Source: an uncultured Pelagibacteraceae bacterium (GTDB lineage Bacteria > Pseudomonadota > Alphaproteobacteria > Pelagibacterales > AG-422-B15). From it: a stretch of DNA of 64,000 bases. The stretch lies in assembly GCA_902518415.1 (NCBI GenBank), contig CABYGA010000001.1:19356-83355 (forward strand), written 5' to 3'. Of the stretch, positions 3,536 to 47,054 are shown piece after piece. A program made the translations under genes and the position numbers. Every line of letters begins with the position of its first letter. The stretch's first letter is position 1. Below the pieces are notes generated by a model. The model searched no databases. It was not told where the DNA came from and saw only the letters and a list, made by a program, of their open reading frames with translations.

Positions 3536-4764
3536 ATCTTATATCCTAAACGTTCAGCTATTATTCTAGAATCTTTTGCGGAGTCTCCGCACGAGTCGAC
3601 TACAATGACTGTGTCCTTATTTAAAGATGGAGCAATTTTTATTGCTTCAGCAAAGGCATGAGAAGGTTCTAGAGAGGGACTTACAAAACCTTCCATTCTA
3701 CTTACCAATTGAAAAGCACTAATCGCTTCCTCATCAGTTGCAGAAGTATATCTTGCTCTACCAGACTCTTTAAGAAAACAGTGCAGCGGTGAAACACCTG
3801 GATAGTCTAATCCTGCGCTAATAGACGCTGTTTCTTCAATCTCTCCTTGATTATCTTGAATTACATATTGTGTTGCTCCGTGAAGAACGCCTAAAGGAGA
3901 ATTATTAGTAAGAGGGGCTGCATGCATTGAGGACCCTTCAGGCCCACCAGCTTCTACTCCAATTAATTCAACATTATCATGATCTATCCATTCATTCCAA
4001 AACCCAGCTGCAGAGGATCCTCCTCCAACACAATTAATCAGTTTCATGTCTTTAGGGATCTCTCCAAACTCATCAATCACCTGTTTTTTCATTTCTCGAG
4101 AGATTTGCGCAGTAGACCATGCACATATTTTTACGAATATTGTTGGTCCAACCGTGCTGCCTACACACATATGCGCTTGCTCGTTTTCACTAGTCCACCA
4201 TCTCATACATTCAGAAACAGCATCCACAAGTGTTTGAGATCCTGAGTCAACAGGAATAACTTCTGCTCCATAACTTCTCATTGAAAATACGTTAATGGAT
4301 TGTCGCTCGATATCTTTAGAGCCCATAAATATTTTACATTTCAAATTAAATTTGGCAGCAGCCATACTCAACATTTTCCCTGCATAACCCGCACCTGTAT
4401 CTCCTCCGATATAAGTTTTTCCTAATCTCTTACAAATAAGACTATGAACTACTGCATTATATGCTTTATGCGCACCACCAGTAGCTTTTGAAACAAGCTT
4501 GCAATAAATTTGTGCACCTCCAAGGTGCTCAGTAAGATTTTCTAGTTTTATAAAAGGAGTTGGAGCTCCTATAAAGTTTTTAAAATAAAAATCTCTCTCT
4601 GCAATGAAGGTTTTATCAGTTCTTAGTTTTTCAAACTCTTTAGTTAATTCTTCAATTGGATGATTTAAACTTTCTGCAATCTGATTTCCTCCAAACTTTC
4701 CTCCCCAATAACCGTTTTCATCATGCTGATCAATAAGTGGAATACCCTTTTGTAATTCGATCAT
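3532..4764 (-). CDS. trpB: tryptophan synthase beta chain
   Basis: PLP-enzyme motifs TGGAHKAYN (Lys-PLP region) and VGGGSSAAG; 410 aa. Confidence 0.93.
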   Translation of the reverse strand: MIELQKGIPLIDQHDENGYWGGKFGGNQIAESLNHPIEELTKEFEKLRTDKTFIAERDFYFKNFIGAPTPFIKLENLTEHLGGAQIYCKLVSKATGGAHKAYNAVVHSLICKRLGKTYIGGDTGAGYAGKMLSMAAAKFNLKCKIFMGSKDIERQSINVFSMRSYGAEVIPVDSGSQTLVDAVSECMRWWTSENEQAHMCVGSTVGPTIFVKICAWSTAQISREMKKQVIDEFGEIPKDMKLINCVGGGSSAAGFWNEWIDHDNVELIGVEAGGPEGSSMHAAPLTNNSPLGVLHGATQYVIQDNQGEIEETASISAGLDYPGVSPLHCFLKESGRARYTSATDEEAISAFQLVSRMEGFVSPSLEPSHAFAEAIKIAPSLNKDTVIVVDSCGDSAKDSRIIAERLGYKI

Positions 4765-10578: not shown

Positions 10579-10654
10579 GGGGCTGTAGCTCAGCTGGGAG
10601 AGCATCAGCATGGCATGTTGAGGGTCACCGGTTCGATCCCGGTCAGCTCCACCA
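10579..10654 (+). tRNA. tRNA-Ala (anticodon GGC)
   Basis: Hand-folded 76-nt cloverleaf. Acceptor is GGGGCTG/CAGCTCC with the G3:U70 Ala identity pair. Anticodon stem is TCAGC/GTTGA with loop AT-GGC-AT. T-loop is GGTTCGATCC. CCA is encoded. Confidence 0.9.
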
Positions 10655-35853: not shown

Positions 35854-35943
35854 GGAAAGGTGGCCGAGTGGTTGAAGGCGCACGCTTGGAAAGCGTGTAT
35901 GCGGGTGACCGTATCGTGGGTTCGAATCCCATCCTTTCCGCCA
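35854..35943 (+). tRNA. tRNA-Ser (anticodon GGA), class II with long variable arm
   Basis: Hand-folded. Acceptor is GGAAAGG/CCTTTCC. Anticodon stem is CACGC/GCGTG with loop TT-GGA-AA. It has a long variable arm, T-loop GGTTCGAATCC, and an encoded CCA. It starts at the base after the lepA stop. Confidence 0.92.
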
Positions 35944-44216: not shown

Positions 44217-45419
44217 ATGAAATTTTTTAGACATTCTTCCTCGCTTTTAGTGATAGTAGGTGGATGTGTTCTTTTATTAGTATCATTTGGAATAAGACAC
44301 TCATCTGGATTGTATTTAATTCCTATTTCAGACCATATACAAACTGGAAGAGAAGTGTTTGGTTTCGCTATTGCTATTCAATTCCTTATGATTGGGATTG
44401 GATCCCCAATCTTTGGAGCAATTGCTGACAAATATGGTTCATCTATTGCAGGTCTGTACGGAGCAATATTTTTTTTAATTGGTCTATACATGATGTCTCT
44501 TGTTGAAGGGTCGTGTCTATTGATAGTTTCGCAAGTGGTCTTTGGATTTGGTTGCGCTGGGTGTGGAACGGCAGTAATTCTTGGAGCTGTAGGTAAAGCA
44601 GTTACAGGAAAATACCAAACGTTGTCATTGGGTATTGTAATGGCTGCAGGTTCTTTGGGGCAATTTATAATTGTACCACTATCAGGATTTATGATCGAAG
44701 CAACTGATTGGCAAAAATCAATTGTCTACCTTTGTTTTATATCCTTAATAATGATTTTATTTGCTTTAACTCTAACAAAATCTTCCTTTAATTCAGGAAA
44801 GGATGATCAAGTTGCTCAATCATTATCATCTGTACTCAATGAAGCTTTTGTAAATAAAAGCTATGTGTTGTTAACAGTTGGTTTTTTTGTATGTGGTTTT
44901 CATGTTTCATTTGTAGCAACCCATTTACCAGCTTATTTGACCGACCTCTCATTACCTTTGTGGATTGGTTCTTGGTCGCTCGCTTTGATTGGTTTATTCA
45001 ATGTTTTTGGGACATTATATTTTGGTCATTTAGGTGATCAAAATTCTAAAAAAAATCTTCTAGTTATTTTATACACACTTCGTGCACTTTTATTCTTAGT
45101 ATTTATTTTTCTTCCTAAAACTGAGATCACAGTACTAATTTTTGCTGCATTACTGGGTATTCTTTGGCTGTCAACTGTTCCTCTTACCAGTGGTATTATT
45201 TCTGTAATTTTTGGGACCAAATATATGTCTATGCTGTATGGCTTTACATTCCTTTCACATCAAGTTGGTTCATTTATGGGCTCTTGGTTTGGAGGTCGTT
45301 TTTATGATTTTTATGGTTCATATGATATCATGTGGTGGGTATGTGTATTTCTTGGTTTTGTATCTGCATTGATGCATTTTCCAATTACTGAAAAACCAAT
45401 CAAAAGAAAAATTGCTTAA
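44217..45419 (+). CDS. MFS transporter
   Basis: 400 aa with ~12 TM and an MFS loop motif (GAIADKYGS). Confidence 0.8.
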   Translation: MKFFRHSSSLLVIVGGCVLLLVSFGIRHSSGLYLIPISDHIQTGREVFGFAIAIQFLMIGIGSPIFGAIADKYGSSIAGLYGAIFFLIGLYMMSLVEGSCLLIVSQVVFGFGCAGCGTAVILGAVGKAVTGKYQTLSLGIVMAAGSLGQFIIVPLSGFMIEATDWQKSIVYLCFISLIMILFALTLTKSSFNSGKDDQVAQSLSSVLNEAFVNKSYVLLTVGFFVCGFHVSFVATHLPAYLTDLSLPLWIGSWSLALIGLFNVFGTLYFGHLGDQNSKKNLLVILYTLRALLFLVFIFLPKTEITVLIFAALLGILWLSTVPLTSGIISVIFGTKYMSMLYGFTFLSHQVGSFMGSWFGGRFYDFYGSYDIMWWVCVFLGFVSALMHFPITEKPIKRKIA

Positions 45420-45559
45420 GCAAATATTAAATTTATTAATTATTTTATTGATTCTATTACTAAATAAGTTTTCCACTTATCCACAAGTTAAGAAATACAA
45501 ATAATTTTTTTTTTATTTAATAATTCTTTTTAATAAATTAATATTTTTTTATCGGAACA

Positions 45560-45660
45560 ACAAAGATCGAAAGCCTTTCGGGGAGTTTGTTCAGAGTTAG
45601 TCCGGAATTTCGGGGCGATATGGAGACCTTTCGGGGTATTTGTAGCGCCCCGTTTTTTTT
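45560..45660 (+). promoter_or_regulatory. G+C-rich structured leader (unclassified riboswitch/attenuator candidate) upstream of LysE-family gene
   Basis: 44 of 82 nt are G+C in 45571-45652 (my count), against AT-rich flanks. TTTCGGGG occurs three times (45576, 45608, 45629). It ends in a terminator hairpin plus T8. Confidence 0.45.
45611..45660 (+). terminator. intrinsic terminator-like hairpin within the leader
   Basis: CGGGGCG (45611-45617) pairs with CGCCCCG (45646-45652) and is followed directly by TTTTTTTT (45653-45660). It lies 35 nt before the LysE-family ATG at 45696. Confidence 0.5.
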
Positions 45661-45695
45661 GTGCTTTGCGTCTAAAAATCGGATACAAATTTCAT

Positions 45696-46322
45696 ATGTT
45701 TTTAGACTTTACCCTTCTTTATTTTTTTATTCCTTTGTTTTTTGTTATTTCTATAACTCCAGGTCTTTGCATGACTCTTGCTTTAACTATGGGTATTACC
45801 ATTGGCCTTAAAAATACGATGAAGATGATGGTTGGGGAACTCATAGGCGTACTAATTGTTGCTGGAAGTGCAGTTATTGGTGGTGGGGCTATCATTTCGT
45901 CATATCCAATGACATTTCTCTTTTTTAAATATGGAGGAGGAATTTATTTGATGTTTGTAGGCTATCAAATGTTCAATTCAAGAGGATCATTAGCATTAAA
46001 CTTAGACGGAACACATTCTTTTGAGATTAATTTTTTAAAGTTAGCAAGTAAGGGATTTATTACCGCTGTTGCCAACCCTAAGGGATGGGCTTTTTTTATT
46101 GCTATGGTACCCGCATTTATCAATTATGACTTAGCGCTCATGCCTCAGATGTCAGCATTGGTTGTCATAATTTTAATAATAGAATTCATATCTTTGATGA
46201 TTTACGCAACTGGCGGACAGATGCTTGGTATTATCTTGAAGAAACAAAAAAATATTCAATCAATAAATCGTTTAGCTGGTTTACTAATGGTAGGCGTTGG
46301 GATTTGGTTAGCTCTTAGTTAG
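45696..46322 (+). CDS. LysE/RhtB-family amino-acid exporter
   Basis: Start moved to ATG 45696 (MFLDFTLLYFFIPLFFVISITPGLCMTL, matching the family N-terminus with its PG motif). 208 aa, ~6 TM. Confidence 0.8.
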   Translation: MFLDFTLLYFFIPLFFVISITPGLCMTLALTMGITIGLKNTMKMMVGELIGVLIVAGSAVIGGGAIISSYPMTFLFFKYGGGIYLMFVGYQMFNSRGSLALNLDGTHSFEINFLKLASKGFITAVANPKGWAFFIAMVPAFINYDLALMPQMSALVVIILIIEFISLMIYATGGQMLGIILKKQKNIQSINRLAGLLMVGVGIWLALS

Positions 46323-47054
46323 ACTCTGTTTAAAAAGCATCCCAGGTCCTTTTGTTGATTCATTTCCAGAACCACGAAACATATGCCATATCATCGCCTG
46401 GTTTGAAGATACAACAGGTTTATTCAGTACGCGTTCTGCTTCATCTATTATTTTAAACGTTTTCAAATTTGTGCATGAAATAAATACTGCATCACAATCA
46501 TTTTTTCCAATTTCTAATATTGCTTTCAAACTATCTCTTTCAGATATTCTTGCCACTACTGTGTCATCAGACTCATTAAATGATTTCTCGATTGATATAT
46601 TAAAATCACCACTCTGAAGATTTTGTTTGAGTTTTTGAGTTACAGATTGCTCATAAGGTGAAACAAATGCAATATTCTTGCATCCAAAGCTATTAAGCGC
46701 TTCCTTAACCGCTCTTATTGGATCTGTTATAAAAGCATTTTTATGTTGCTCTTTAATTAATTTATTTATTTTTTCAGAGCCAATTACCGTTGCACCTGAG
46801 GTACATGCATATCCAATACTGTTAAAGTCAATTTTTGGGAGTAGGTCCACTGCAATTGGTAAATCATTTTCCATTCTTGCAAGATTCTCATTATTGACAG
46901 ATTGGTCACAGGGAATCCTTGAGTGATAAATGGCAACACTCTCATCAAGTGTGCTTCTTATCTCTTGCTCAACTGTCTCATCACTTTGCAGTACGATTAA
47001 TCCAAATCTCATACTGTAATAATCTGGATCATCTAGCTTAAAATTCTTCTCCAT
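46308..47054 (-). CDS. Asp/Glu/hydantoin-racemase-superfamily protein (maleate isomerase / arylmalonate decarboxylase-like)
   Basis: 248 aa with the two catalytic-Cys contexts GYACTSGA and FISCTNL typical of this family. Confidence 0.72.
   Translation of the reverse strand: MEKNFKLDDPDYYSMRFGLIVLQSDETVEQEIRSTLDESVAIYHSRIPCDQSVNNENLARMENDLPIAVDLLPKIDFNSIGYACTSGATVIGSEKINKLIKEQHKNAFITDPIRAVKEALNSFGCKNIAFVSPYEQSVTQKLKQNLQSGDFNISIEKSFNESDDTVVARISERDSLKAILEIGKNDCDAVFISCTNLKTFKIIDEAERVLNKPVVSSNQAMIWHMFRGSGNESTKGPGMLFKQSLTKS

Follow-up and report, generated by a model that had tools for sequence, protein, structure and literature searches.

What does a G+C-rich block in front of a LysE-family exporter gene do in SAR11, and does it serve that gene at all? 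The block lies in a 64-kb window (the whole stretch of DNA analysed, 64,000 nucleotides) between an MFS transporter gene (44217–45419, + strand) and the LysE gene (45696–46322, + strand). The identities given earlier to both flanking genes were borne out by Pfam, with MFS_1 (PF07690) upstream and LysE (PF01810, E = 4e-21) downstream. An earlier note on this DNA had read the block as a ligand- or protein-sensing riboswitch or attenuator of LysE that switches through repeated CGGGG segments. What stood of that reading is a real and conserved element with the make-up of a structured RNA and an intrinsic terminator, while its dedication to LysE did not stand. Comparison of the block across SAR11 leads us to conclude that it is probably an independent, SAR11-restricted small non-coding RNA gene with a putative promoter of its own, control through an upstream box, a terminator and probable action in trans.

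The sequence features reported for the block could be reproduced in the window. The octamer TTTCGGGG occurs at 45576, 45608 and 45629 and the 64 kb hold no fourth copy; roughly 0.81 copies are expected by chance in 64 kb, and three copies were obtained in 3 out of 100 shuffles. The count of 44 G+C in 82 nt (45571–45652) is correct, and the 131 nt preceding the element (45420–45550) contain 12% G+C. The terminator arms were found as described, CGGGGCG (45611–45617) pairing with CGCCCCG (45646–45652) and followed by T8 (45653–45660), as was the LysE ATG at 45696 with 35 nt between it and the T tract.

Distribution of the element

A comparison of LysE orthologues, using one genome per species, placed the window in the Pelagibacteraceae with 99% identity to the single-cell genome AG-333-C14. 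The element was found upstream of LysE in two SAR11 lineages, termed lineage A (L001–L004) and lineage B (L006–L013 and L015), with the ATG following 35–40 nt on. Conservation in front of LysE orthologues, the check proposed earlier, held for these two lineages but not beyond them, the element being absent before LysE at six further SAR11-like loci and at 61 out of 61 orthologous loci of other genera.

Metagenomes were scanned with the invariant core GAAAGCCNTTCGGGGAGTTTG, which returned 21 loci. Two of these were unrelated G+C-rich chance matches; the remaining 19 included two further lineages, C and D, in which the stems have diverged. More copies, among them four complete genomes of ~1.38 Mb, were added by tracing two neighbouring proteins, MFS and one of 77 aa, through a protein database and the contigs that encode them. 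For two common variants of the 77-aa protein the element was present at 20 out of 20 loci. Altogether 59 copies were collected from SAR11 genomes and metagenomes, all sharing one module, and as the loci were fetched via LysE, MFS and the 77-aa protein the copy counts are biased by retrieval route. The qualitative point on gene context made below stands irrespective of this bias. A covariance model of the element scored every copy at 95–122 bits, found exactly one copy per locus and gave no match at the LysE loci lacking the element. Neither a pattern scan of viral contigs nor a search of a phage collection returned the element, which was found only in some lineages of SAR11 (Pelagibacteraceae).

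Rfam 15 covariance models matched the element in none of the four lineages, either at gathering thresholds or at permissive E-values, in agreement with the earlier remark that the block could not be assigned by eye to a familiar riboswitch class. The best score for the window element (E up to 10) was obtained with RF00519 (suhB/mmgR), at 17.5 bits compared with a gathering threshold of 41 and with E = 0.3. The alignment covers the apical hairpin of the terminator and the U tract, but besides being below threshold it brings together just generic terminator features. The core strings and the tandem box described below were absent from the searchable literature, outside which earlier metatranscriptome-derived small RNA groups may fall.

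Gene context

At least five gene contexts were observed among the 59 copies. In lineages A and B (25 copies) the order is MFS, element and LysE, all co-oriented, and adjacency to LysE is confined to these lineages. In lineage C (5 copies) a convergent gene of 99 aa comes after the MFS gene and the element, its stop codon lying 3–4 nt from the terminator. In lineage D (29 copies) a variable gene precedes the element, which faces the convergent end of an ABC(MacB/FtsX)-DUF3299-77-aa operon with its stop codon ~6–12 nt away. The promoter-side gene of lineage D encodes an S9 peptidase, a porin, an aldehyde dehydrogenase, a cytochrome c, an MMPL/RND protein or a tRNA, and it is divergent at several loci (S9 peptidase, MMPL, a tRNA). 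Lineages A, B and C have the MFS gene as upstream neighbour, its orthologues being located upstream of the element in L007, L088, L092, L095 and L102, and no element was found after MFS orthologues at 73–77% identity. In AH-287-F15 a lineage-C copy lies behind the MFS gene, and the LysE gene of this genome is found ~5 kb off on the same contig, where it directly follows another gene and is leaderless.

The element is independent of its flanking genes and does not travel with LysE. Since the downstream gene is convergent in 34 of the 59 copies, there is nothing there to regulate in cis, and since the promoter-side gene is divergent at several loci the element cannot depend on transcription of the upstream gene. 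Each copy moreover carries its own promoter-like module, described below. An attenuator dedicated to LysE is not supported by these arrangements. A role as 3' element or terminator of the MFS gene was ruled out as well, the upstream genes being variable and some of them divergent.

A dual role in lineages A and B, with the small RNA produced by termination and the LysE mRNA by read-through, was also considered. The terminator would here act as a constitutive or factor-modulated attenuator of LysE in the window, and the ancestral function of the RNA would be independent of LysE. The LysE ATG follows the U tract at 35–40 nt in both lineages with no convincing promoter between, and in the window no obvious LysE promoter was seen in the 35 nt, so that read-through is possible; LysE in the window may perhaps be transcribed in this way. 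Two lineages with 85% identity between their LysE proteins have both retained this gene order, and as LysE follows without a visible promoter of its own, a role in cis is possible in the lineages that make up 25 of the 59 copies. Lineages A and B however show no conservation in the stretch from terminator to ATG, the folds revealed no conserved antiterminator pairing, U8 together with a stem of 7 G-C pairs predicts efficient termination, and LysE could own a short promoter that was missed by the scan. We consider a dual role unlikely on balance. In terms of an independent small RNA gene, LysE, lying 35 nt behind the terminator, would probably be served by read-through polymerases in the lineage of the window, and its link to the element would have arisen there as an accident of gene order, the purpose of the element lying elsewhere.

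Predicted structure of the RNA

Conservation sets in sharply at ATCGGA (45551) in all lineages. The small RNA predicted from this boundary, 5'-AUCGGAAC...CGCCCCG-U8-3', would span 45551–45660 on the + strand, which amounts to 102 nt as far as the terminator base, with the U tail in addition; that it is a discrete RNA with this start and this termination point is read from the sequence. Stem-loop 1 (45553–45604, + strand) has an apex (45568–45589) of the form CGAA / AG / CCY - UUCG - GGG / AG / UUUG, and almost all copies agree in every one of these 22 nt. The basal helices predicted by RNAfold are weak and vary between lineages. The basal pair 9:48 alternates between A:U and G:C, and lineage B is predicted to lack the basal helix and to form a local hairpin instead, while the same stem-loop 1 architecture was obtained for lineages A, C and D. 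In the variant found in L102 a G to U change creates a U:A pair and the UUCG loop is replaced by CUUG, which is another stable tetraloop. These changes fit the hairpin model of stem-loop 1.

Stem-loop 1 is followed by a single-stranded linker (45605–45610, + strand) that reads GAAUUU in the window and GUGUUU or GAGUUU elsewhere, the UUU immediately 5' of the terminator stem being invariant. Stem-loop 2 (45611–45660, + strand) is the intrinsic terminator, with the stem 45611–45617 × 45646–45652, an inner extension carrying an apical UUCG-type hairpin, and U8 at 45653–45660. RNAfold folds this region as a long bulged terminator stem, and a simple terminator scanner gave no call at the hairpin solely on account of its loop limit of 3–8 nt. 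Lineages C and D have an interrupted U tract, which reads UUUCUGU in the commonest lineage, so that termination is possibly inefficient there.

The two-hairpin fold recurred among lineage representatives with RNAfold z-scores of −1.9 to −3.6 relative to shuffled sequences. For the four scored helices, with pair counts drawn from 24 distinct sequences, 91.8% of cells were paired as opposed to 33–55% when the partners were slid by 1–3 columns, and the covariation score was 0.25 as opposed to at most 0.085 in the slid controls. The search for covariation that had been proposed for the element was thereby answered for the terminator stem, where 5 out of 10 pairs changed on both sides (GCG/CGC, GCC/GGC and GUU/AAC). 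The apex of stem-loop 1 is invariant in the 24-sequence alignment and gives no evidence either way on structure. Several invariant G-U pairs and the U tract restrict the fold to the + strand.

The pattern of three octamers is present in the window but is not conserved. Copies 1 and 2 alone are invariant, the former being the 3' strand of the UUCG hairpin and the latter the 5' arm of the terminator, and copy 3 reads TTTAGGGG in lineage B and TTTTCGGAG in lineage D. The proposed switch was built on three CGGGG segments vying for a single CCCCG arm, and this rivalry is not conserved: copy 3 is lost in the commonest lineage and copy 1 is locked in the invariant hairpin. The sole alternative pairing found, CCG:CGG, comprises 3–4 bp and is absent in lineages C and D. 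As this is too short to compete with the G+C-rich terminator stem of 7–10 bp, no conserved terminator/antiterminator switch was seen.

These results bear directly on the reading of the block as a LysE riboswitch. The 25 copies in front of LysE, the strong terminator and a conserved G+C-rich 5' domain that has no match in Rfam would all suit a sensing element of this kind. The 5' domain is however a single irregular hairpin with no junction or pseudoknot, conservation does not extend to the third CGGGG, the first CGGGG is held in the invariant hairpin, LysE orthologues outside lineages A and B are without the element, 34 out of 59 copies have no co-oriented downstream gene, and in AH-287-F15 the element and a leaderless LysE are found apart. 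The gene contexts come close to refuting a riboswitch dedicated to LysE, to which we assign only a minimal probability.

Coding potential was evaluated across the lineages and no conserved ORF was found. Indels of 1–2 nt separate the lineages, candidate start codons are not conserved (ATG 45620 reads ATA in L001 and L002), and lineage A has a UAG stop in a frame that stays open in lineage C. A leader-peptide attenuator was rejected on the grounds that the only leader ATG is not conserved and that the frames differ between lineages. A G-quadruplex was likewise rejected, lineage D retaining just two GGGG runs.

Another explanation is that the element acts on convergent transcription, by interference with the 77-aa or 99-aa gene or the operon or by pairing with a read-through 3' UTR. 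In 34 copies the stop codon of a convergent gene lies 3–12 nt from the terminator. The hairpin on the opposite strand is not followed by a U tract, and convergent mRNA may consequently run into the RNA gene. Lineages A and B however have no adjoining convergent gene, and the invariance of the apical hairpin would be left unexplained. Close apposition is in any case expected from the short intergenic spacers of SAR11, which have a median of ~4 bp and are short everywhere (bioRxiv 10.64898/2026.04.03.716430). A role of this kind appears very improbable to us.

Upstream box and putative promoter

A tandem direct repeat, TTTTCCAC-T-TATCCACA (45469–45485, + strand), is found upstream of the RNA in 59 out of 59 copies, with the consensus T(T/A)ATCCAC(A/T)TATCCACA. 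The second unit is a perfect DnaA-box 9-mer, TTATCCACA (45477–45485). With respect to the DnaA-box consensus TTATNCACA, the perfect TTATCCACA is present in every copy and the other unit matches at 7–8 of 9 positions. The perfect box occurs once in the 64-kb window, and 33 out of 33 perfect boxes in 292 kb of SAR11 DNA were located at the element. The distance from the end of the box to ATCGGA is 63–66 nt (mode 65) in all 59 copies. In the window it is filled by an A/T-rich spacer of 65 nt (45486–45550, + strand) in a region of ~12% G+C, and across copies the length of this spacer is conserved while its sequence is not. In lineage D sequence conservation ends a few nt upstream of the box. The module, taken as box, spacer and RNA, would accordingly measure about 190 bp.

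A −10-like hexamer, TAATAT, is found at 45539–45544. Such a hexamer, with A as its second and T as its sixth base, is carried by all of the 49 distinct upstream sequences at 4–7 nt upstream of ATCGG. The −10 is extended in lineage B (TGnTAnnAT), and in lineage C TTGAAA is separated by 17 nt from TAGTAT. Hexamers of this kind are prone to occur by chance in DNA of ~12% G+C and are taken here as weak, supportive evidence for a promoter.

A spacer of fixed length and free sequence points to a DNA spacing constraint, that is, to a protein site at ~−82 to −66 of the promoter, and we read the box as a putative operator or activator site at that position. A promoter at the box itself was rejected, as the −10 match there is poor and the spacer fits DNA spacing better than an RNA leader. 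Because the box matches the DnaA-box consensus, the foremost candidate for its binder is DnaA. The two units share 1 nt, which results in an 8-bp period, and another protein that binds tandem repeats is possible instead; to our knowledge this layout has no precedent among DnaA arrays. Direct control of small RNA synthesis by DnaA through a tandem DnaA box at fixed position is put forward tentatively, as a possibility that we hold to be unlikely in this specific form.

The same features could in principle describe a DNA-level DnaA-binding module, either a datA- or DARS-like site for titration or reactivation of DnaA or a minor origin, in which two strong DnaA boxes would adjoin an A/T-rich stretch for unwinding and the G+C-rich part would act as DNA. 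A tandem site with the perfect DnaA-box consensus next to 65 bp at ~12% G+C, both at conserved positions, would be in keeping with such a module. Against this, the G-U pairs and the U tract are present on one strand only and the stems covary like RNA stems. The module moreover has two boxes only, its chromosomal place differs between lineages, and neither GC skew nor gene orientation changes sign as it would at an origin. A replication origin was rejected since skew and gene orientation are not origin-like and the chromosomal context varies, and a DNA-level module in general is regarded as improbable.

Comparison with known RNAs

The element resembles Hfq-type trans-acting small RNAs in general. 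In common with these it has its own promoter (here predicted), a length of ~100 nt and no ORF, an invariant 5' end, a UUU linker before a G+C-rich terminator with a U tail, and conservation that is independent of the flanking genes. It differs in where conservation is strongest, which is in a closed hairpin capped by UUCG instead of an open seed.

CcnA of Caulobacter crescentus is a 182-nt RNA encoded inside the replication origin and transcribed from a CtrA-box promoter, and its CCCC loop pairs with GGGG in targets (PMC8959179). Both are alphaproteobacterial small RNA genes, predicted as such for the element, that are physically associated with DnaA boxes, and runs of four G or C matter to CcnA. 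The element RNA is however ~105 nt and G-rich, its boxes lie upstream at ~−75, it is not located at an origin and there is no sequence similarity. The authors of the CcnA study found no homologue in Rickettsiales (PMC8959179). As length, loop, promoter and location all differ from the published description (PMC8959179), homology was rejected and CcnA is treated as an analogy and not as a relative.

Two candidates from SAR11 itself were compared. The 'rhtB motif' of Meyer et al. 2009 is a bulged hairpin, GAUAGUCCUU-CUUAGCCAUC-UUUAGCUCCC-GGUUUU-AAGGACUAUC (PMC2704228). It shares with the element a SAR11-specific conserved bulged hairpin, often with poly-U, near a LysE/RhtB-type gene, but differs in sequence and fold (GAUAGUCCUU...AGGACUAUC), consists of a single hairpin with no 5' domain, and has not been described with a tandem box (PMC2704228). 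Its published alignment bears no resemblance to the element and the motif was rejected as a relative (PMC2704228). The survey of HIMB5 by Stav et al. 2019 reported one small RNA candidate, sRNA-1, and in addition sORF-2 with a PPDT peptide (PMC6429828). Similar to the element, sRNA-1 is a SAR11-restricted two-hairpin candidate with convergent flanking genes of varied function; it is defined by GAAUCA between the hairpins and GAGGGAG in the P2 loop (PMC6429828). Neither of these sequences is conserved in the 59 copies and the gene neighbourhoods differ, which led to its rejection, and sORF-2 was rejected given that no frame of the element encodes a conserved PPDT peptide (PMC6429828).

Proposed mode of action

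Taken as an independent small RNA gene, the element would work as follows. RNA polymerase would start at ~45551 from a sigma-70-type promoter with its −10 at ~45539–45544, and the output of this promoter would be set by a protein bound to the tandem box at ~−82 to −66, with DnaA as the leading candidate. The transcript would fold into two hairpins, stem-loop 1 with its UUCG-capped invariant apical stem and stem-loop 2 that would end the RNA at ~45660. The product of ~105–110 nt would most likely act in trans, with either the invariant 5' end or the G-rich segments engaged in base-pairing or the invariant hairpin bound by a protein. The AUCGGA 5' end, the invariant apical hairpin and the order of UUU, terminator and U tail are as expected of a regulatory small RNA that pairs with mRNA or binds protein. 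The lack of covariation in the apical stem, whose two strands are both invariant, leans towards a protein that recognises it or towards other pairings made by these strands. A target scan within the 64-kb window, employing duplex folding against 61 start regions and a search for exact complements, gave only matches at chance level or on the wrong strand; two 10-nt complement matches were antisense to coding strands and at chance level.

Implications for SAR11

On present sequence evidence the element is best classed as a new small RNA family restricted to SAR11. Its putative promoter has an unusual architecture, in which a DnaA-box-like site is held at strictly fixed spacing. The ~190 bp module has been retained while its neighbours changed, which points to selection on the RNA and on its control site. 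With regard to annotation, the label of LysE riboswitch is inappropriate for the element, and spurious ORFs called over it should be dropped. One such call is the 85-aa gene placed across the element in L102, which is spurious.

SAR11 bacteria have extremely compact genomes with very few transcription factors and known regulators, and their cell-cycle control is poorly understood. Earlier surveys of SAR11 intergenic regions proposed a single small RNA candidate (Stav et al. 2019, PMC6429828). If the tandem box is truly a DnaA site, the element would provide an experimentally accessible link from replication initiation to post-transcriptional control in SAR11, and an RNA controlled by DnaA would report replication or initiator status to gene expression.

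Upstream box and variable junction

A DnaA-box-like tandem repeat, T(T/A)ATCCAC(A/T)TATCCACA, is located upstream of the putative small RNA gene at window positions 45469-45485 and occupies the equivalent site in each of the 59 related loci, with 63–66 nt between its end and the start of the RNA. Its two units overlap by 1 nt, so that the period is 8 bp. Outside the tandem box of the element, no perfect TTATCCACA was found in 292 kb of SAR11 DNA. In the loci L122-L141, the DNA immediately past the box on the promoter side of the element is a variable junction. Depending on the contig, the box is followed by a gene for an S9 peptidase, a porin, an aldehyde dehydrogenase, a cytochrome c, an MMPL protein or a tRNA (L130, 845-915; L141, 751-821). 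By analogy, this arrangement resembles that at a genomic-island insertion point.

Genes adjoining the RNA gene

On the terminator side, the same loci (L122-L141), together with L097 (39-272) and L110 (2001-2234), carry a conserved gene for a Lys/Glu-rich protein of 77 aa with a C-terminal CSCC, for which no Pfam match was found. This is the final gene of an ABC(MacB/FtsX)-DUF3299 operon, and the RNA terminator lies roughly 6–12 nt from its stop codon. Variants of the protein at 58–68% identity are encoded in L114-L121 with no adjoining RNA gene. In lineage B (L007, 2504-2737), the MFS gene is separated from the box by an extra 77-aa ORF, which is unrelated to the CSCC protein and absent from the lineage of the window.

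Directly ahead of the LysE ATG in the window, ATCGGATACAA (45679-45690) is a partial copy of the RNA 5' end, ATCGGAACAACAA at 45551. As the equivalent sequence is variable in close relatives (ATCGAATACAA, ATCAGATACAA), this partial repeat may be due to chance or be the remnant of a rearrangement. The LysE gene overlaps the 3' end of a convergent Amdase-family gene (46308-47054, minus strand) by 15 nt (46308-46322); a carboxyltransferase gene comes next, and the same trio is present in lineage B.

Gene calls and Rfam matches

The stored gene calls of the public contig L102 include an 85-aa ORF (3675-3932, minus strand) antisense across the RNA gene. Matching ORFs at this site were obtained in our own ORF scan of L095 (3287-3544, minus strand, 85 aa), L093 (78 aa) and the window (45530-45688, minus strand, 52 aa). 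As the lineages do not share these reading frames, the ORFs are taken to be miscalls. At gathering thresholds, Rfam returned only two matches in the whole window, both of them tRNA genes (10579-10651 and 35854-35940), and the length of the latter, 87 nt, suggests a long variable arm.

Diversity of the RNA family

The apical hairpin, the UUCG-capped top of stem-loop 1, is otherwise invariant and has a natural variant in L102 (3802-3908), CGAAAUCCCCUUGGGGAGUUUG, in which a G-to-U change creates a new U:A pair and the loop UUCG becomes CUUG. In L110 the hairpin reads GGGGAAUUUG (G to A). The 21-nt core pattern was also observed in two unrelated G+C-rich metagenome contigs, L086 (3579-3654) and L100 (124-143). 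As the covariance model scored these at only 19–20 bits, they are regarded as stable GCC-UUCG-GGG hairpins that arose by chance. Neither the L102 nor the L110 variant was caught by the exact-pattern metagenome scan, and the diversity of the RNA family is therefore greater than the 21 hits of that scan suggest.
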